A DNA stretch of 63,201 nucleotides, filler included, from Stramenopiles sp. TOSAG23-2 (taxonomy: Eukaryota): assembly GCA_900128395.1 (NCBI GenBank). It is 18 parts of 18 records of this genome, joined end to end, with 100 filler letters (N's around TTAATTAATTAA, not from the genome) between each part and the next. Parts side by side here need not be neighbours in the genome. Positions count along the whole stretch, not along the records: positions 35,256 to 38,667 come from LT651218.1; 17 more parts are not named here. One strand, written 5' to 3'. Positions 4,642-49,299 of this stretch are shown here, one piece after another; position 1 is the first letter of the stretch, and every line of letters starts with the position of its first letter. The translations under genes and the position numbers were made by a program. Under the pieces are notes generated by a model that saw only the letters and a program-made list of their open reading frames with translations, was not told where the DNA came from and did no database searches.

Positions 4642-5958
4642 TCACAATTTAGAAGAAGATGATGAAAAAAACCAACGTAAATGCTCAGCAAACATACTTG
4701 AACCCATTAATAAATTATGTCCACCGATACCAAAATCATAACGATAATCATATCCAGCAAAACGGAATGCATCTGCCATTGCATGATTTGCTATTGCCCA
4801 ATTACCATATTGATTATCCATATCATTTGAACCAGATGTTAATACAACTTTAATATCTTTTGGTTTTGTACGTCTTATTACATATGGAAAATTTTGACCA
4901 CCATTTAATGCAGTAAATGAACCACACTATATATTAAAATAAATATTTATATATATATAGTAAAAAATTTCAAATAATAATAAAAAGTTGTTAGTCATCT
5001 TGTTAAAATACATATACATACATCAGATTTTAAAAAAAAAACTTACATGTGATAATACTTTGCCCCATAAATGTGGATGATGCCATGCTGCAGTAAATGC
5101 TGCATTACCACCGCTACTAATTCCAACGATCATTCGTTTCTTTGGATCAGTTGTAAATGTTTTACCAACATAATCTTCACAAAATGGTATGACTTCATCA
5201 TTTAAAAAATTTGAATATGCATCTGTACAACGATCATATTCAACTTGCCTTTGTAATGAAACACGTGGATCATATGGAATTTTATCCAAACTGCCATATT
5301 TTTGTAACAATTCACGACTTGATAAACATTCAATTGGTCTACCAGGCATTAGAAATATACCAACCGAAATTGGTATTTCTTTATTTGCTATCATAGTATT
5401 CATTACTTCTGGTGCATGAAATATTCCTTGTCTTGCCATATAACCTAAACCATCAGTAAAAAAAAAAATACCAGGAGGCGGTGGTGGTGAATTATTATTA
5501 TTAGTAGTAATATTGGTTTCTACCATTAATTGTTTTGGTGTATATATAAATAAATCCCATTTCATATTTGGATAATATTTTGATGTAATTGTAGGCATCC
5601 AACTACGAAACGATTTGATACCACCTATCGGTATTGTTGATGAATCATTAATGGATTCTGGGCATGGATGATATGGTTCATTACGATAATCTTGCATTGG
5701 ATCCCAATTAATTGATTCACGTTTTATAGGTGGATAATATATACTACGTTCATATTTTATTCGTCGTTTATACATTTCTTTTTCTGTTATACTTCTTTCA
5801 CTAACTGCATTGTAACCTGGTTTCTGTGAAGATGGATTAGATGGATCATATCGTTTAATCTCTTGATGATGATTCCATTCTACTAACGAACCTGTTAATT
5901 TCGATACGTTGAATAATAATTTTTCTTCTTCATCATTATCTTTTGTATTGTTTTCCAT
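4642..5958 (-). CDS. Enterochelin-esterase-like (Fes/PF00756-type) alpha/beta hydrolase, 2 exons (5958-5047, 4926-4642), ends in SKL
   Basis: GISSGG nucleophile elbow and QRQVEYD motif. A GTAAGT..TAG intron at 5046-4927 joins KVLSH to CGSFTALNGG...SNDMDNQYGNW...GGHN...LRWFFSSSSSKL*. Confidence 0.85.
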
Positions 5959-6435
5959 AATACTTTGTTGGTTTTTTTTTTTTGGCTATAATATAATTTA
6001 TTTTTTAAATCTTCCGTATTATCTATATCTACGTATTAAAATCTTTTTATATTTTAATATTGTTATGTGTAAATTTAGTAGATATTGTTATTATTATTAC
6101 TACTATATATATCTAGGTATGCCTTGTTTTGTCGTTTTTTTTCCTGTAATAATCTATATGTGAAAAAGTTGAATTAATAAATGAAATATCTGATAATAAT
6201 TCAGATTTTAATTATATAATCCTAATAAAAATATTTTTTAGAGAAGAATAAATATCCAAGTTATTCAAAATGAAAATAAATCTTTTAATAAGGATAATAG
6301 AAAATTTATTGATTCTAATTTTGAAAATAGTCCTTCGATTAAAACACAAACACTTAGAATACCTTTTTCGTATGTATTACATGTTTTTTCTTTTTTTAAA
6401 ACCATGATGTATCAACCTTTATATACAGATATAAT

Positions 6436-6874
6436 AATAATTTAAAAGGATATGGTTTGAACTCGACACTTTATTTTAATTTTCAATCCATCTTCGTCAA
6501 ATGAATAACACTACACAGGATAGAGAAAAATCAGTAAAATTAATTAAAAATCCAAAATGAAGACCCGAGTGTAATATATTAGAAAAATAATTTAAAAGGA
6601 TATGGTTTGAACTCGACACTTTATTTTAATTTTCAATCCATCTTCGTCAAATGAATAACACTACACAGGATAGAGAAAAATCAGTAAAATTAATTAAAAA
6701 TCCAAAATGAAGACCCGAGTGTAATATATTAGAAAAATAATTTAAAAGGATATGGTTTGAACTCGACACTTTATTTTAATTTTCAATCCATCTTCGTCAA
6801 ATGAATAACACTACACAGGATGGAGAAAAATCAGTAAAATTAATTAAAAATCCAAAATGAAGACCCGAGTGTAA
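6436..6874. repeat. 150-bp tandem repeat, about 2.9 near-identical copies
   Basis: TTTAAAAGGATATGGTTTGAACTCG starts at 6441, 6591 and 6741; one A>G difference in copy 3. Confidence 0.95.
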
Positions 6875-7079
6875 GGTAGGAGTGACACGTTAACTCTTTA
6901 TCTTGTGTATACTACTGTGTGATTTTACAAATTTACTACACATTATCGTCTTTCAAATTTCAAAGTTAACCTTTAAANNNNNNNNNNNNNNNNNNNNNNN
7001 NNNNNNNNNNNNNNNNNNNNNTTAATTAATTAANNNNNNNNNNNNNNNNNNNNNNNNNNNNNNNNNNNNNNNNNNNNAG

Positions 7080-14142: not shown

Positions 14143-14903
14143 TTGCTAAATGGAAAGATTAAAATTGTTATAAGAAGCATTGCAGATGTACTTACAAACC
14201 ATAATTCATAATCTTGTAAATTTGTATATGCAAGTATTGCTCCACAACCTATATTTGATAAGCCCATTCCAAGGCTTAAAACACCCCTTACACGATCATA
14301 TGTATAATTATTTGGTTTGGGTGAATTTCGACATACGTCCATCACAGCAGAATCTCGAACACTTCCACTAGCTCTTCCAAATGCACTTAACAATACACCA
14401 GCAAACGTTAAATACCACAAACGTTTTATTTCAACATTGTCTCCAGATACTGGTAAAAAATCACCCAACAATATTTTTAAAGTATAAAAAACATTTGTCT
14501 CTGATATATTATCATCATATGCAAAAAATTGAATTAACAATAAGCAACTAGAAATAACAGTACCAATGCTTAATAATTTAAGAAAAAATGAGAACATACG
14601 TGTTCTCTCAATTAATATACCAAATAATGGAGTTGCCACTGCAATTCCAGCTGCCGTAACCGCAAAATAAATGCCAATTGAAGTATATGACAAATCAGCA
14701 TCTTTCAAAAATATGGCTAAAAAGGACCTTGCACACGCACCATTGATTCCAACACAAAAATATATAACTTTTGCAATTGAAATAAATGTTACAGCTTTGG
14801 CTCTTAAATATTTCTTTTCTTCCACAAGAGTATCATTCAACGATGTATACAATATATTCTCATCATGGTAATTATTATTGTTGGAAGGAGTCGAGGATGA
14901 CAT
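14143..14903 (-). CDS. Major facilitator superfamily transporter (MFSD6/MFS_1-like), 3' truncated
   Basis: Multiple TM segments; FLAIFLKDADLSYTSIG and YDRVRGVLSLG motifs. Confidence 0.7.
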
Positions 14904-15007
14904 TATAATTTCTTTTCTTCCACAAGAGTATCATTCAACGATGTATACAATATATTCTCATCATGGTAATTATTATTGTTGGAAGGCGTCGAGGATGACA
15001 TTATAAT
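14812..15007. repeat. 98-bp tandem duplication of the MFS gene start with one SNP
   Basis: TCCACAAGAGTATC at 14821 and 14919; GGAGTC versus GGCGTC. Confidence 0.9.
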
Positions 15008-29038: not shown

Positions 29039-31088
29039 TTAAGTAAAATTTGGTTTCTTTCCCCATACACCTTTAGTAGCAACAACTTTTTTCTCATCTT
29101 TCTTTACTCCAATAGATGGAAAATCCATTGGTTGAAATGATGGCGCATCAACATTAAATTTAGGAGATATTTCTTTCTTAATGTTATCATTATTATTATT
29201 ATTAGGTGACTTCTTTCCCCATGATGGTGATGATTTAAGATTTGTAGCTAATACAGTTTTACTTGTTATTTCAGAAGTTGTCGTTGTATCTGCAGCTACT
29301 TTTTTACCCCATGGTGAGGAAGATGCAATTGTTGTTGTTGTTGTTGTTGTTGCTGCTGCTGCTGCTGCTGTTACTGGTACTGGTGGACTAGATTCCACTT
29401 TTTTTCTACCCCAAACTCCGCCACCACCCGTTGTTATACTACTACTTTTACTTTTATTACCACCCAAAGTAGGAAAATCCATTGGTTGAAATGCTGGTGC
29501 AGTAGTATTAAATTTCATTGCACTATTCCTTTCCACACTTGGTACTTTGGCTGTCGTTGTTGTTGATGGTGGTGGTGGTGGCAAGGTTGTTTTAGATAAT
29601 TGTGAAGTAGGTTGAGATGGTACTGCTACTTGTTTCGATATGATATTTGCAGGGTTGCTACTAGTAGTGTTATTAGTAGAAGTTCGTGCAGCACCCCATG
29701 CTGGCCGACCAGATGAAGATGGTGCTGCACCCCATGGTGGACGATTTGATGATCTCATGGATGGTTCCATCGATGATTTTGGTTTCTCCCAACCACGACC
29801 GCTTGATATTCCATTATTATTATTATTACTATTATTATTACTGCCTTCGTTTTTCTTCTTTAATTCTGCTTCCATGTCTGCTAATGTACGCCTTGGTCGA
29901 TTTGTCGCATGACGGTTTAATAATCGATTTATTCCACCATTAGTAGTAGAAGACGAGCCAACATTTGCTCGTCTATTATTGGTATAATTATAATTATTAT
30001 TATTATTTCCCGTAGGTTCTGGTTTAATAGACGATGGGCTTGATATTAATGGTGATGATCGTCGTTGAAATTTAACATCATCTTCAATTTTTTTCACTTC
30101 TTCCTTTGCTTCTAAAGCCGTAATTTCATTCTTACTTAATTGTTTTTCCTTCTTTCCTAAATCATTATTGTTTGTTTCTGCGTTATTATCACTATTATCT
30201 TTTACCACGGCATCGCCGTTTTCTTTTTCTTTTGCATTTGGTGTATAATTGATTGGTCGTGTGCGATTTGTTTGAATGCATATTTTGCATACTCTTCGTG
30301 GTCCGCGTTTCATTTGTGATCTTGAATAATCAGATTCAGGCAATTGTTTTAAACAAACACTGCATTCTTTCATGATAATTTTTTTCGGTACAATATCTTT
30401 TTTATCTATTACTGCTGCCTTCGGCAATTCCAAATTTGTCATTTCCTCAACAGTAATAGTACCATCACCACCACGATCATCTATAACATCTTCAACAACT
30501 TCACTTCTACTATTACCACGTTCACGTTTATAATGCATATCCATAAAGCTTTCATCTTGCCATGAAAAACCACGAAATAGTCTTGATGGGGAGCTGTTAC
30601 GACCATCTTTGCTAGGTTCTTTAAAACTTGGTTTTGGGGAATCTAATACAGAAGACCTTGTAAACTCTTCATCAAAATTACTAGTATCTAACTCGCCATT
30701 CACAGTTGGTACGTGTGGTGCTTTTCGCTTCCGTTCAAAAACATGTACCCAATTTGTACCTTGGAAAAATCCATCGTTCTTCAATTCTACAACACCTCTT
30801 GTTTCAAACATGGTTGATTTTTGAGAACCTAAACGTCTTTCTGGATTCCGCTGCAATAATTTTTTAATAAAACTACATGTTGAGCCAGATAAATATGTTG
30901 GAAAAACTGGTTTACGATTTAAAATTTTCTCATGTAATTTCTTTCTATTTTTATCACGAAATGGTGCCTTGCCACAACACATTTCAAATACTAAACATCC
31001 AAATGCCCACCAATCGACTGATTTACCATATCGTGCACCTTTAATCTATATATATGTGTGTGTGTGTATGTGTGTATGTGTGTATGTA

Positions 31089-31119
<31 letters not shown>

Positions 31120-31642
31120 GCATGTATATGATGATTATTTAAAATTGTTAGTAAAATGTCGTCTATTTGTATTTGTGTAAAAAAAAATTGTAGTAAGAGA
31201 AAATAAAACATACCATTTCAGGTGCCATGTATTCATCCGTACCACATATTGTTTTACAAGGTGTTTCATCTGTTGTTCCATTATTTTCAATTGTACTTTT
31301 AGCCAAACCAAAATCAGTTATACGCAAATGTCCTTTATCATCCAACAAAACATTTTCAGGTTTTAAATCACGATGTATAATACCCATTTTGTGTAAATAT
31401 TCCAATGCCAATACAACTTCAGCTGCATAAAACCGTGCTTCTGGTTCTAAAAAAAATGCACGATTATTTAAATGTGAAAATAATTCACCACCTATAATAT
31501 ATTCCATAACTAAATACACTTTACTTTTTGTTTGAAACGCTGCTAATAGTTTAACTAAGAACGGATGTTCAATACGAGCCAATGCATCTCTTTCTTCAAT
31601 AGTACAATCAATTGCCGTCTTTGAATGTAAAAATTCTTTCGT
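29039..31642 (-). CDS. AGC kinase, ribosomal S6 kinase-like, with a long C-terminal extension; intron 31213-31046; 5' truncated
   Basis: HRDLKPEN and DFGLAK; TICGTDEYMAPEM joins IKGARYGKSVDWWA across a GTATGT..TAG intron; AGC tail DTSNFDEEFT, VLDSP, FRGFSW. Confidence 0.88.
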
Positions 31643-34996: not shown

Positions 34997-35255
34997 GTGA
35001 GAGTGTGTGAAGTTTGTTTCGAGTTAAAATATTATGATATATATTGAAATATGTGTGTTTTGGAATATATTGATTTTTGACTTTAGTGTGGAGAGATTTA
35101 AAATGAGAGAGAGCAATATGGAGTGTGGTGTTTAGATCAATCCAAATTGTTTTGTNNNNNNNNNNNNNNNNNNNNNNNNNNNNNNNNNNNNNNNNNNNNT
35201 TAATTAATTAANNNNNNNNNNNNNNNNNNNNNNNNNNNNNNNNNNNNNNNNNNNN

Positions 35256-35385: not shown

Positions 35386-36114
35386 TTATGGCGCATCATT
35401 ACCATTAAATTCGACGTATCTAGGATGTTGTTTTCTTGCTGGTCCTCTTCCTTCAATATATTTTGAATCTTTTGCTGCTCCAATATCAAGAACTTCCCAT
35501 CCTTGTCCAGCTTGATTACATAACATAGTAACTACTTGTTTCGCAAAACCATCACCAGTAATTTCAATCGGCTGTTGTTTATTATTAGAAATGGAACTTG
35601 CGTTTACATGACAAAAAGCTTTTACCCATGTTGTTGTATTTGGATCTGCACCTCCTTTTACTGCAAGATCACTTAACCACGTTAATTGAGATTGATAAGG
35701 AGCAGGTGCTCGTTGTGATTCATTTGACCATCTACTATAAGATGCAGACATTTCACAAATTCCTTTCCCAGATAGTTGTTTCGCATATTTTTGTACAAAT
35801 TGTTTTGCTGGAGGGCCGGATGGAGTACATAGAAAGATAAAGTTAGCTTTTGAAAACATATCATCATGTGATGTGCCTATGACATTTTCACGCCCAATAC
35901 GTTTTGCTAATTGTTGGGCTCTTGACGGTTCCCTTGAGCCAATGATTATCGGAATAGAATATGTTGACCACCTTGCAGCATGTGCAGTTGCCATCATGCC
36001 TGTACCGACAATTCCTATCACAATATCTTTAAATTGTTCTGGCAAAGCAATTTGTTTTTCTAAAGACATATTACCCAAATAATATTGTACTGAATTTGAT
36101 AACCTTGCTCCCAT
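35386..36114 (-). CDS. NADP oxidoreductase, F420-dependent-like (FNO/STEAP N-terminal type) Rossmann protein
   Basis: IGIVGTGMMA, IIGSREP and WVKAF motifs. Confidence 0.75.
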   Translation of the reverse strand: MGARLSNSVQYYLGNMSLEKQIALPEQFKDIVIGIVGTGMMATAHAARWSTYSIPIIIGSREPSRAQQLAKRIGRENVIGTSHDDMFSKANFIFLCTPSGPPAKQFVQKYAKQLSGKGICEMSASYSRWSNESQRAPAPYQSQLTWLSDLAVKGGADPNTTTWVKAFCHVNASSISNNKQQPIEITGDGFAKQVVTMLCNQAGQGWEVLDIGAAKDSKYIEGRGPARKQHPRYVEFNGNDAP

Positions 36115-36495
36115 TTAACACACAATAAGATACACAACACACGATGGAGTTTGAATAATAATATGTGTTTTATCACTATTCTCACGTCGTTAATAATATG
36201 TGAAGAGATAAAATGTTTTGTGTACTATATACATGGATGTTTTGGGTGTTGGACATTAAATACCACACCGTATTAAAATTTAAATATTTAAATTTAGGCC
36301 AGTAAGGAGGAGAGGACGAATACACATATATTTAAGGAAAATAACACTGGATTACCATTGATATAGAATTTTTACATCCCCATCACCCCCTTACCCTTTT
36401 TTTCTTCCTTTTCTTTTTCCCTCTGTTTATTTTTCAAACATATACTATATATATATAGATTCATTAACATATATATTATATTCATTTAGTATCTT

Positions 36496-37360
36496 TTAAT
36501 TTCTACCATTGGCCCCATAGTATAAAATTTGCCATACCAATGTACCATTCACTAGAAGGGAAGTCGATTGTGTTGTTATCATCAATGCATCTCCAGCTAA
36601 TTGTTTAAATACTGTGGAGCGAAGCGTATGAATGTGTGATGTGTTAGAGAGGATATCTAGTGTGGTTTCAGGGGAATAGAATTTTACGTTACCTGTATAA
36701 ATACGAACTAAACTACCAATAACTGTGAAGCATAGCGTATATGAATGTGTGATGTGTTAGAAAGGATATCTTATTTTCGGTTTAGGGGAATAGAATTTAC
36801 TTACAATTTAACAAAGTAGTAGTAAAACTTAATTCACCAACAGCTTGTGCACGGAAATTTTCAACAACTTGTGGCAATTTACCAGTTAAACCAAGTATAA
36901 TTGTGATTGTTTTTGATAAATTCAATATTTGAGTACCTAGAGCATTGCCAAAAAATTCTTTTGCTTTCGACATAACAACACCAGATACACCAACACCAAA
37001 AATAAATTGTGATATGTAAGCCATAGAACGTCGTCGTTCAAAATAAAAAATTTGAGAACTAATAATTAATGTACCTAAACCTTGAAACAAATTTTCACCA
37101 TATGCAGAGAATGGATGCTTTTCACTATATGAATATGCAAATGCAAATATATACGCAGCAAGATCTTGCAAGTTTGTCAACAAATTTACACCCCTTGCAG
37201 ATCCAGCATTATGTATTTGCATTATCTGTGGGATTTTATATACCATGGAAAAAAATATTACAATATAACCTAATACAATAGCAATTTGTGATTTTGGTTT
37301 TTTTTGTATCGCCATCTCATTTTTTTTTGTTGACGGTGTAACTTTCGTTGATCCAGCCAT
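36496..37360 (-). CDS. MPDU1: PQ-loop protein, MPDU1/Lec35-like, 3 exons (37360-36805, 36722-36693, 36611-36496)
   Basis: KIPQI, FSAYGE and KLPQV motifs. Splicing out two introns restores GELSFTTTLLNFIGSLVRIYTVFKQLAGD...LVNGTLVWQILYYG, matching the MPDU1 C-terminus. Confidence 0.85.
36612..36692 (-). mobile_element. 81-nt spliceosomal intron, introner-like copy 2
   Basis: GTAACG donor, CTAAC branch site, CAG acceptor; shares TTCTATTCCCCT, GATATCCT and TCTAACACATCACACATTCAT with copy 1. Confidence 0.75.
36723..36804 (-). mobile_element. 82-nt spliceosomal intron, introner-like copy 1
   Basis: GTAAGT donor, CTAAC branch site, CAG acceptor; homologous along its length to intron 36612-36692. 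Confidence 0.75.
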
Positions 37361-38129: not shown

Positions 38130-38520
38130 TCACAATTTACTTTGAAGAAACAATCGATTTTGTATTTCCTTCCTTACATTTGGTGCAAAACGTGATAATA
38201 TGACACTTAATCCAACGACGGATAGGCTTGTCAAAGGAAAGACAGTGGCCAATCCATACATGCCTAGATAATATTCTAAAAAATGAAACCAATCTGCACG
38301 TACTACTTCATAATTCATATCTTCCTCCGTCGTACCTAAACGTCTTGAAACAGAAGAATGTATTCTTGTATAAAATCGATCATAATTTTTTAATGATGGA
38401 TGCATATGCATATTTTTTAACCATGTCCATAAGTTTGGATATTCATCAATAATTGGAATTACTTCTTCGCTTAATGGTCCAAATGATTTAGTACCACTAA
38501 ACATGCATTGAAAATGCCCT
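38130..38520 (-). CDS. Last exon of a probable GST-C-terminal-like protein with a TM segment and C-terminal SKL
   Basis: AG acceptor at 38522-38521, then GHFQCM...IDEYPNLWTWLKNM, hydrophobic tail, QSKL*. Confidence 0.5.
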
Positions 38521-39145
38521 CTATATGCATATGATATACCACCGTAGAGTAATGTTTTTTTATTTCATATATACAAAAATATTTTGTGTTGTTAGATGAT
38601 CTAATTATTATAATTTTTTTTTGTTACAATAGATATTCATATATATGTATATAAATGTATATATATANNNNNNNNNNNNNNNNNNNNNNNNNNNNNNNNN
38701 NNNNNNNNNNNTTAATTAATTAANNNNNNNNNNNNNNNNNNNNNNNNNNNNNNNNNNNNNNNNNNNNTAATCGTAAAATAAAATCAAAACGTGAAAAGAT
38801 ATTGTATGGTGCATATAATTTTAGTTAAAATAAAATAATATGATAAGTAGAAACACCTGTTTATTCTATCATATCTCAGTATCAGTATTATATCTCATAT
38901 TTTGATAGAGATATGATTATGATACTCGTATATATTACGAGTATATCTATCTATCAATAAATATTAACTCTATTATTTCTGAGATAGAGTATTGAGCACA
39001 TATCATAGTATTCATCACCGGATGATGTCATACGATTGTACTCGTACATGTTCGTAAAAATTATTAAAAAATTATGTGGCTTACTCGTAGACTTTAACTA
39101 TTATTATCTAGAATATTGCATATATGTATACCATGGCTCCGTCAC

Positions 39146-45875: not shown

Positions 45876-46251
45876 TTTGTGGTGTGTCTCTGGTGCTGTA
45901 CATAGTGTGTGTGTGTGTGTGTGTGATTAAATTTAAAAAACATATTAAAATTTTTATTATATGAAAGTAAAAAAATTAGATATATCATATCATACAGACG
46001 GTGTACTTTATATTCGTATGATGTAGAATGAAAAGCAAAAAAAATCACACTACCCACACACACACAGGTTTTAACGCAGGTGGTAATGCCTTCTACGTAC
46101 ATATTTTAATAAACGACGACACGTTTTCATAAAATACTTTTATTAGATACGACTGAAAGCACTTTCATTTGGAGCCAATGCTAAATGATCTACACCTCCA
46201 ATATGTCTGCAACTGACTCTACCATTACCAAATATTGTAAACAACGATTTA

Positions 46252-47231
46252 TTAGATACGACTGAAAGCACTTTCATTTGGAGCCAATGCTAAATGATCT
46301 ACACCTCCAATATGTCTGCAACTGACTCTACCATTACCAAATATTGTAAACAACGATGTTGCTGAATTTGGTGTACCAAATGAAACTGCTTGAACATTAT
46401 GATCATTTGTTGTTGACGAATCTAAATTTGGATCTTCTGGTATATTTAATATTGCTTTTTGTAAATGATCAATAAAATTACCATGCATAACAAATACAAC
46501 AAAATGACTATTATGCATATTACGAAATTCATCACTTTTGATCCAATTTGATACTTTATATGCACGTTCTCTGCTTTTCGTATCATTTTCCCATCCATCA
46601 ACATACCACGGACCTTGTACAGGCAATAAAGATGTGTCATAACCTTTATATAAACTACTTATATCAGCCGCGGAAAAACATTTTCCAGGGCCATCCCGTA
46701 AATTTTTATCATTTATTATATAAACACCACCAGTTTCAAAAATATCTGGTCTGACTTGAACTTTATATTCATCAGCATCAAAAGATTCAATAATACCTTT
46801 TGTAGTATCAAGGGTTCGTTTAAATGCGGATGTATAAATATGTAGATTCCTACTTTTACTTTCTCCAAAATTCAATGTCTGACTTGAACTTTATATTCAT
46901 CAGCATCAAAAGATTCAATAATACCTTTTGTAGTATCAAGGGTTCGTTTAAATGCGGATGTATAAATATGTAGATTCCTACTTTTACTTTCTCCAAAATT
47001 CAATGCTTCTTTTAAATATTTTCCTAATGCCCTAGCTTCTTTAACACCTTTTCCCGTTAGTTCTGGATCATCCACACGATTTTCACCCCATAATCGTTCT
47101 CGTTCGTCACGTGTTATTTCCCCACGTGCTTCTTTCATAAATAATGGTTCCAAAATGGTATTGTTCGTAGATTGTCCATGACGTACAAAAATGACTGGTA
47201 TCCCACGTATATGCGCTTGTGATCCTGCCAT
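46252..47231 (-). CDS. Histidine phosphatase (phosphoglycerate mutase family); frame broken by a 128-bp tandem duplication
   Basis: FVRHGQS, DPELT..G, TSAFKRTLDT and VMHG motifs; removing one copy within 46750-47005 gives a single ORF. Confidence 0.85.
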
Positions 47232-47564: not shown

Positions 47565-47762
47565 ATATGATAAGAGTATAGGACTCCAAGTAATAAATCT
47601 TATTGGTGTACAACTATTGTGAAATACATAATATATGGAATAACGTACAAAAACATAAGAATTATATGATAAGAGTATAGGACTCCAAGTAATAAATCTT
47701 ATTGGTGTACAACTATTGTGAAATACATAATATATGGAATAACGTACAAAAACATAAGAATT
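47565..47762. repeat. 99-bp exact tandem duplication
   Basis: ATATGATAAGAGTATAGG at 47565 and 47664. Confidence 0.9.
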
Positions 47763-47793: not shown

Positions 47794-48708
47794 ATGGAAA
47801 ACACAGTGTTGTTATTGAAAAATCAACAACCAAATGATAAATATATTAGTGAAGGAAAGTTACATGGTTTTAATGTATCTTGTTTGCCTTTATTCCAATT
47901 TGAATATGAAAATATAGATTCAATTGGAGATATATTACAACGTATGATTGGCCAAGCGTCGTCATCATCTTTTTTTGGAATCATTTTTACTAGCCCTCGT
48001 GCAATAAAAGCATTTCAAATGGCAATGGATTCTGACACCAATTTGTTTTCAATTATTATTACTAAGAATATTATTTTATATTGTCTAGGAGAATCATCTT
48101 CAAACAAACTTATTAAATGTTTCGAGGGTGATAGCCAATGTCCAATAATCAAAGGCCGAGAAAGTAACAATGCGAAGGAATTAGCACATTTTATCTTAGA
48201 TGATTTAAAATGTAACAATACAAATGATAGTGGTGAAACTTTACAGGATCATTTGAAAGAGAAACAGCTATTATATTTGTGTGGAGCAACACGTCGAGAT
48301 GAATTACCAACCATATTAAGTTCTCAAAAAGGATTATTATTAAAGTTAAATGAACTTATTGTATATAAATCTGTACCCATACCAAATGTAAATTTTCCAA
48401 AGTATGACAATTTACCGAAATGGATGGTATTCTTTAGTCCAAATGGTGTAGATATTATTGTGAATTTATTACTTGGAAAAGATAATGTAAAATATAATGG
48501 TGAAAAAGAAGAAGAAAGAAATAGTGTGAAGAATGATAATAACAATAATAATATATTTTCCAAAATGAAAATTGTTGCGATTGGTCAAACTACGAAAAAA
48601 CGTCTTGAAATGCATAATATAATTGTAAATAAATGTCCATCTAAACCAAATGCATCTTCGTTGTTTCTTGAATTAGTTGGAGGCGAGGGAAAGATGACGA
48701 AGAAGTAA
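47794..48708 (+). CDS. UROS: Uroporphyrinogen-III synthase
   Basis: GIIFTSPRAI, LYLCGATRRDELP, VFFSPNGV, VAIGQTT and KPNA motifs; 3' end duplicated with a 104-bp period (48622-48835). Confidence 0.9.
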   Translation: MENTVLLLKNQQPNDKYISEGKLHGFNVSCLPLFQFEYENIDSIGDILQRMIGQASSSSFFGIIFTSPRAIKAFQMAMDSDTNLFSIIITKNIILYCLGESSSNKLIKCFEGDSQCPIIKGRESNNAKELAHFILDDLKCNNTNDSGETLQDHLKEKQLLYLCGATRRDELPTILSSQKGLLLKLNELIVYKSVPIPNVNFPKYDNLPKWMVFFSPNGVDIIVNLLLGKDNVKYNGEKEEERNSVKNDNNNNNIFSKMKIVAIGQTTKKRLEMHNIIVNKCPSKPNASSLFLELVGGEGKMTKK

Positions 48709-49299
48709 CAACTTAATAAATAAAGATTGTAAATAAATGTCCATCTAAACCAAATGCATCTTCGTTGTTTCTTGAATTAGTTGGAGGCGAGGGAAAGATG
48801 ACGAAGAAGTAACAACTTAATAAATAAAGATTGTATTTATGTACTTTGTACATATCCCTTACACATCTGTTTACCGTGTGGTTTATCCTCTTGCTTTGAT
48901 CTATCTCAACTTTTTTCTTCACAACAATCATTCAATCAAAAAAGTATACATTAACATATATATCGATATATAATTCAGAATAATATTAAACAAACAAAAT
49001 AAAACCCGTATATATATTATATAATATTAGACTTGTAAAACAGACATATATACACACTTCAAATACACCCAAGGATATTCGACCCATAGCAAAAAGCAAT
49101 TGTCGAATAAAATTATATCAATAATAAAGCATACTGTATATATAAATAAAAACATATTATCATACACAACAAATAACAATATAAGCAATAATGCAATCAN
49201 NNNNNNNNNNNNNNNNNNNNNNNNNNNNNNNNNNNNNNNNNNNTTAATTAATTAANNNNNNNNNNNNNNNNNNNNNNNNNNNNNNNNNNNNNNNNNNNN

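Follow-up and report, generated by a model that had tools for sequence, protein, structure and literature searches.

When two introns of one gene resemble each other from end to end but the exons around them do not, the question is how such a pair came about: by insertion of a mobile, intron-generating element (an introner), by copying of one intron from the other, or by some process that keeps non-mobile introns alike. Such a pair interrupts an MPDU1-like gene in the 63,201-base stretch of DNA analysed here, referred to as the window, and had been taken for a candidate introner family in a reading made from the sequence only. We examined the gene and its splicing, searched for further copies, and compared the intron positions with the protein products of relatives. 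Each of the two introns is very probably an insertion in its own right, of a multi-copy, non-coding introner 79-97 nt long, in an uncultured, AT-rich marine protist.

The MPDU1-like gene and its two introns

The window has a G+C content of approximately 30% and consists of 18 separate contigs, the longest of 3,441 nt and the shortest of 3,390 nt, with N-TTAATTAATTAA-N spacers between them (for example at 35156-35255 and 38668-38767), so that contigs side by side in it are not necessarily neighbours in the genome. Its largest repeat family (D1) is made of these inter-contig spacers, and was discarded as not being a genomic repeat. The intron pair and its host gene lie in the contig at 35256-38667, which carries three genes, all on the minus strand (Table 1). 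Tandem duplications of 98-150 nt, perfect or near-perfect, were noted at 6430-6879, 14810-15005, 46139-46356, 46736-46991, 47565-47762 and 48622-48829, the last four within the single contig at 45792-49199. Either genuine minisatellites or artefacts, from amplification or from assembly, could account for them.

Table 1. Position of the host gene, its introns, the neighbouring reading frames and the two further intron copies (window coordinates unless a locus is named)
Feature	Position	Length	Strand	Phase	Remarks
Oxidoreductase-like ORF	35386-36114		-		same contig as the MPDU1-like gene
Exon 3	36496-36611		-		stop TAA at 36498-36496
Intron 2 = introner copy 2 (i2)	36612-36692	81 nt	-	1	GTAACG start, CTAAC 32 nt from 3' end, CACAG end
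Micro-exon	36693-36722	30 nt	-		original coding sequence, middle of second PQ-loop region
Intron 1 = introner copy 1 (i1)	36723-36804	82 nt	-	1	GTAAGT start, CTAAC 34 nt from 3' end, CACAG end
Exon 1, MPDU1-like (PQ-loop) gene	36805-37360	556 nt (185 codons + 1 nt)	-		open frame, ATG at 37360
Third ORF	38130-38564		-		same contig as the MPDU1-like gene
TauD copy	L002, 2302-2398	97 nt		1	3' part of TauD-family dioxygenase gene (PF02668, E 3.3e-42)
Methyltransferase copy	L004, 3947-4025	79 nt	-	0	follows a frame open to the contig end and precedes a methyltransferase-like ORF (PF08242)

The host gene has PQ-loop repeats, detected by Pfam in two stretches of exon 1 (PF04193, E 3.2e-18), and full-length similarity to homologues that are 59-85% identical and bear in their source the name mannose-P-dolichol utilization defect 1. 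The three exons together encode 233 aa, uninterrupted by any stop. Over 223 aligned residues, 85% of this product is the same as in the homologue P0002, and the match is closest at the end, where 50 of the last 52 residues are the same and the junction region, as shown in the alignment, is free of gaps. The residues encoded by the micro-exon are contiguous with both neighbours in the homologues P0002, P0003 and P0004. The anatomy proposed by the sequence-only reading, namely two phase-1 GT-AG introns of 82 and 81 nt around a 30-nt micro-exon, whose removal restores the MPDU1-like C-terminus, was therefore correct in its coordinates and in its consequence for the protein. So were two smaller points, the presence of a CTAAC branch site in both introns, and the absence of in-frame stops from intron 2, which is crossed by an 86-aa frame (36496-36756).

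The two introns align over 72 of 85 columns (85% identity; 68 of 84 when aligned with MAFFT). Their alignment scores 119, whereas 2000 shuffles in which the splice-site ends were held fixed averaged 45.7 (sd 6.1, maximum 70; z 12.1). By contrast, 30-nt stretches of the exon flanks agree at just 7-10 of 30 positions. The flanking exons being unrelated, the pair is not a segmental duplication, as had been argued from the same comparison. On the sense strand, the introner copies contain 26-33% C and 7-10% G, and a 21-mer core taken from them occurs in the window in these two introns only (chance expectation 0.01).

Splicing was followed in contigs mapped onto positions 36420-37100, from two DNA runs (X1 and X5) and two marine metatranscriptomes (X15 and X16). 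One polyA-RNA contig of 151 nt (X16, record 19) matches the window without mismatch from 36914 to 36805, then from 36722 to 36693, and ends with 11 letters that correspond to 36611-36601. The joint 36722>36805 skips exactly the 82 bases of intron 1. This RNA thus runs from exon 1 through the micro-exon into exon 3, and both introns are removed at the predicted sites, contrary to the unspliced transcripts that the sequence-only reading had named as a refutation. An 887-nt contig from the other RNA library (X15, record 9) keeps both introns unspliced, and may reflect intron retention, retained pre-mRNA or DNA carry-over. No weight was given to the stretches of 36420-37100 that lack RNA cover in X15 and X16, nor to the high depth of X5 at 36443-36488, which corresponds to an AT-microsatellite of the 3' UTR. 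The RNA proof of splicing covers the two MPDU1 copies; for the TauD and methyltransferase copies described below, in-silico removal of the intron restores conserved or open frames.

Further copies in other genes and on other contigs

A metagenome scan with the 21-mer core returned four loci, L001 to L004. L003 is the MPDU1 locus itself in a second assembly, 98.9% identical over 3.4 kb, with both introns present and each 98% identical to that of the window. L001 and L002 are one locus. The copies that can be read as sequence are therefore four, at three loci (the two MPDU1 introns, L001/L002 and L004), and those of L001/L002 and L004 come from other assemblies, perhaps from other species.

In L004, the relative P0037 is matched at residues 113-151 by the frame upstream of the copy (E 0.007), and at residue 179 by residue 44 of the methyltransferase-like ORF. 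The two matches being collinear, the L004 copy interrupts a coding sequence, as an intron in phase 0. A long open frame of 884 aa, its 5' end open, lies elsewhere on the same contig, on the plus strand (1-2655), and is convergent with the methyltransferase gene; it looks like an ABC transporter of the ABCC type, from Walker-type motifs recognised by eye only. In L002, an ordinary phase-1 intron of 101 nt (2054-2154; GTAAGT, ACTAAC, a CA-repeat and CAG) joins the TauD ORF to a 49-codon exon, and this exon precedes the introner copy. This ordinary intron and those of the window at 4927-5046 and 31046-31213 were tried as decayed family members and rejected. Their scores were at shuffle level, except for 31046-31213, where the excess is an effect of a CA-microsatellite. 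The GTAAGT, ACTAAC and AG signals are the sole likeness of the ordinary introns of these contigs to the family.

The methyltransferase copy is 88% identical to intron 1 and 87% to intron 2. Overall, copies differ by 12-15% where no large indel is involved, and by approximately 25%, indels counted, for the 97-nt TauD copy. Over the 20-nt flanks of the four copies, mean pairwise identity is 0.27 and 0.31, versus 0.75 over the last 40 intron bases (three copies), so that the similarity is confined to the intron. Four similar introns are thus found at non-homologous sites, in genes for unrelated proteins (PQ-loop/MPDU1 twice, TauD and methyltransferase-like), in sequences from three assemblies.

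Contigs of the DNA runs indicate that the family extends beyond these four copies. In X1 (6.9 Mb), the probable origin of the window's DNA, 17 contigs were mapped, of which 16 fit in part only; among the contigs listed, seven (182-15,985 nt) match 36611-36687 or 36724-36804 and nothing else, with 0-9 mismatches. In X5 (913 Mb), which also contains the whole mapped stretch with one mismatch, 80 of the 125 mapped contigs fit in part only. Among the contigs listed, the partial matches are confined to 36724/36729-36795/36804 on intron 1 and to 36611/12-36684/87 on intron 2. Loose ends of contigs cluster at 36611-36613 and 36798-36806, that is, at the intron ends, and the agreement of the flank consensus there is low (0.43-0.70), which points to different loci. 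Several copies map with a 5' arm on intron 1 and a 3' arm on intron 2, with a middle of their own; the element thus consists of two conserved arms and a variable centre. A copy number in the tens is a fair reading, the figure being rough since the core is CA-rich in part and a single genomic copy can give rise to more than one contig fragment. The partial contigs, and the two further loci available as sequence, support the proposal of an introner family that had been made from two adjoining introns.

Two observations were made on single contigs of these runs. A 182-nt contig of X1 (record 8), which matches intron 1 at 36740-36798, has a word depth of 11,036, while that of the window's contig is 684; many copies of the family may have collapsed into this one unitig, or amplification may have been uneven. 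In each DNA run, one contig goes back by 46 within the 3' arm (joints 36656>36611 and 36658>36613), which suggests that the 3' arm is doubled in tandem in some copies, or that two partial copies lie end to end.

Elsewhere, searches were negative. Two motif scans, blastn-short and an nhmmer profile of the four copies gave chance-level matches and no further copy in the other 17 contigs of the window (approximately 58 kb). Among viral contigs, an 18-mer core had two matches, in contigs of 46% GC and with no wider similarity, which were taken as chance, and the 21-mer with one Y had none. Both core motif scans of a genome-contig collection gave 0 matches. A protein search with the frame that runs through intron 2 (region 1-49, E up to 10) gave no candidate among proteins of 47-151 aa.

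Age of the insertions and origin of the pair

Relatives were compared as protein products and not as DNA. Among 22 related proteins, 16 are unbroken over both intron sites, including P0013, P0006 and P0029, encoded on contigs of 37, 47.5 and 50 kb, and the IMG gene calls P0015 and P0016. P0012, from a 10.8-kb contig, is continuous over site 1 and frameshifted after it; P0001 and P0005, which are related at the same species level, end two codons into intron 1; P0009, P0010 and P0011 reach neither site. The frameshifted and truncated proteins suggest that ORF callers had worked on genomic DNA, and if so, relatives at 57-79% protein identity are without both introns. From these protein products, in which the two positions do not appear as ancient and shared, we infer that both insertions postdate the split from the relatives whose MPDU1 proteins read across both sites. 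In one of the unbroken proteins, P0021 (78 aa, from the 82% group), the first eight residues have no likeness to P0002, with which the protein agrees from QVYSNF on; its ORF seems to have been begun inside an AT-rich intron of that relative, upstream of the two introner sites.

How recent the insertions are is another matter. The sequence-only reading had called the element recently active, which is too strong: the copies have diverged by 12-25%, and both insertions are common to the window and to the L003 assembly, 1.1% apart. Current activity of the family is thus not established.

Even in a real family, the second MPDU1 copy could have been made locally from the first, or vice versa, by reinsertion of the excised intron into its own transcript or by local hopping of a DNA element. 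The two introns are 112 nt apart in one gene, with the same orientation and the same phase, and independent insertions so close together would, on a rough estimate, be unlikely in a genome with tens of copies. However, the family was noticed only because two copies adjoined, so that the argument from closeness is partly a selection bias. Moreover, the two introns (85% identical) are no closer to each other than either is to the methyltransferase copy. A 2-nt indel in the 3' arm groups intron 1 with the L001/L002 copy and intron 2 with the L004 copy, and the variable middle of intron 1 resembles that of L004 and L001 and not that of intron 2, in a comparison of four short sequences only. On this small sample, the two MPDU1 copies look like independent arrivals, and local copying is an unlikely origin for the pair. 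In Oikopleura dioica, homologous intron pairs within one gene have reportedly been taken as evidence for intron transposition. The pair described here is similar, in that two homologous introns occupy different sites of the same gene, but it belongs to a family present in other genes, and its two members are not mutual nearest relatives.

A different explanation would be that the shared sequence is a functional RNA or regulatory module, such as a snoRNA, hosted and kept in several introns without being mobile. Two blocks are indeed strongly conserved among the copies, and in 36612-36655 every variant stays below a tenth of the depth. Yet the homology spans the whole intron, both splice sites included, and ends there, and the host introns are absent from relatives, as judged from protein products. 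No Rfam family, rRNA included, reached the gathering score anywhere in the window, and no C/D or H/ACA box motif was recognised by eye. Nor do the four copies have a stable predicted fold: minimum free energies are -0.2, -0.6, -2.8 and -5.8 kcal/mol, with z scores of +1.24, +0.94, +0.29 and -1.26. We regard such a module as very improbable. Finally, homogenisation of two old introns by gene conversion, with no mobile family, is favoured by the close spacing and by the lack of a third copy in the 63-kb window, but it is excluded as the whole story by the presence of the family in other genes and on numerous further contigs, and by the relatives that read straight over both sites.

Anatomy, movement and relation to known introners

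The structure of the element was considered for marks of its movement. Each copy starts with GTAAGT or a close variant, has CTAAC 32-34 nt from its 3' end, and ends with CACAG in three cases out of four (ATATAG in the TauD copy). The element supplies its own splice signals, and splicing therefore takes nothing from the flank. The diversity of the junction contexts agrees with this independence: the bases before and after the intron are TT and TT, AG and TA, AG and GT, or GT and AT.

No target-site duplication (TSD) in a fixed register was found at the boundaries of the four copies, where the longest shared words differ in word and in register in every case (GTTA/ATTG, ATTTA, TAGGT and ATGT; n=4). 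The ACAG on both sides of intron 2, proposed earlier as a possible TSD, was rejected, as ACAG is part of the conserved end of the element itself. For terminal inverted repeats (TIRs), the first 35 nt were compared with the reverse complement of the last 35 nt; the local score was 4 in all four copies, a value reached by 461-500 of 500 shuffles, in keeping with the earlier remark that no clear TIR is visible.

A scheme can be drawn from these features. An element with a GTAAGT-type 5' site, CTAAC and CACAG would land in sense orientation within an exon, the spliceosome would cut it out exactly, and the reading frame would be restored, the two MPDU1 introns being derived from different source copies. 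Movement would occur either by reverse splicing of the spliced-out RNA, or as a DNA element without the classical marks, and we lean slightly towards the RNA route. RNA-based intron gain is a long-postulated and disputed route. The family, having neither TSD nor TIR, is therefore a candidate for it. In its complete form, this route would make the family an RNA-mediated introner outside the ascomycete fungi, in which an 80-nt, unstructured, G-poor intron is reverse-spliced into transcripts, then reverse-transcribed and recombined into the genome. We offer this full version tentatively, as possible but rather doubtful. It would explain why the element is exactly the intron, why TSDs and TIRs are absent, and how two copies came to lie 30 nt apart in one transcript.

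Introner-like elements of fungi are reported to have a stable predicted RNA structure, which is missing in the four copies here. The host differs as well, a fungus in the case of the ascomycete elements and an uncultured marine protist here, for which a protein atlas gave no finer placement than Eukaryota. In other respects, the closest likeness is to these ascomycete elements (Alternaria alternata family 1) and to the non-TSD, non-TIR families of Micromonas pusilla, as described by Gozashti et al. 2022 (PMC9860276): near-identical short introns lie at unrelated sites, element and intron are coextensive, with both splice sites included, TSD and TIR are lacking, and mRNA length is unchanged after insertion and splicing. 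For the ascomycete families, reverse splicing is proposed (PMC9860276). The families of Micromonas, Aureococcus, Chrysochromulina and Symbiodinium are described as DNA-transposon introners with TSDs of 3-9 bp and/or TIRs (PMC9860276). They share with the present family a marine host, a short non-autonomous element, many copies and precise splicing; in contrast, the present family has no TIR and no consistent TSD, and borrows no splice site from the flank.

In two surveys, 548 introner families are counted in 175 genomes (PMC9860276), and 1,093 families in 201 species out of 8,716 genomes surveyed (Gozashti et al. 2025, PMC12130899), with a strong aquatic bias. Outside ascomycetes, 78.5% of the assessable families have a TSD and/or TIR, and about a fifth have neither (PMC9860276). 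Approximately 72% of the families of the larger survey are without a mechanism class, for example the dominant family of Parmales sp. 'scaly parma' (PMC12130899); in their description, these resemble the present one in having no recognisable transposition mechanism. The features of the present family fit the minority of introner families without TSD or TIR, and the unclassified 72% (PMC9860276, PMC12130899). A literature search found no report of introners in single amplified genomes; published family lists lay outside that search, so the family may be listed already. Introners combined with heterotrophic stramenopiles gave one match, which concerns Amoebophrya.

This kind of element is already known from many aquatic eukaryotes, and the present family is a further example. 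Introners are described as the sole known mechanism for bursts of intron creation, and as commonest in aquatic protists (PMC9860276). The 2022 survey filtered out assemblies without annotation (PMC9860276), so a genome such as this one was probably missed there, and the family adds an uncultured marine protist with a fragmentary assembly to the introner hosts. Two insertions, as this pair shows, are enough to create a 30-nt micro-exon. Of the 24 runs listed, 20, from 15 studies that comprise marine metagenomes and polyA metatranscriptomes, contain the stretch in whole or in part. Because of this wide occurrence in marine runs, presence/absence polymorphism and splicing efficiency are open to study without culture, in a cosmopolitan host that is abundant in public metagenomes and metatranscriptomes. 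If the RNA-mediated reading were true, intron gain by the RNA route could be followed in a natural population of this cosmopolitan marine protist.
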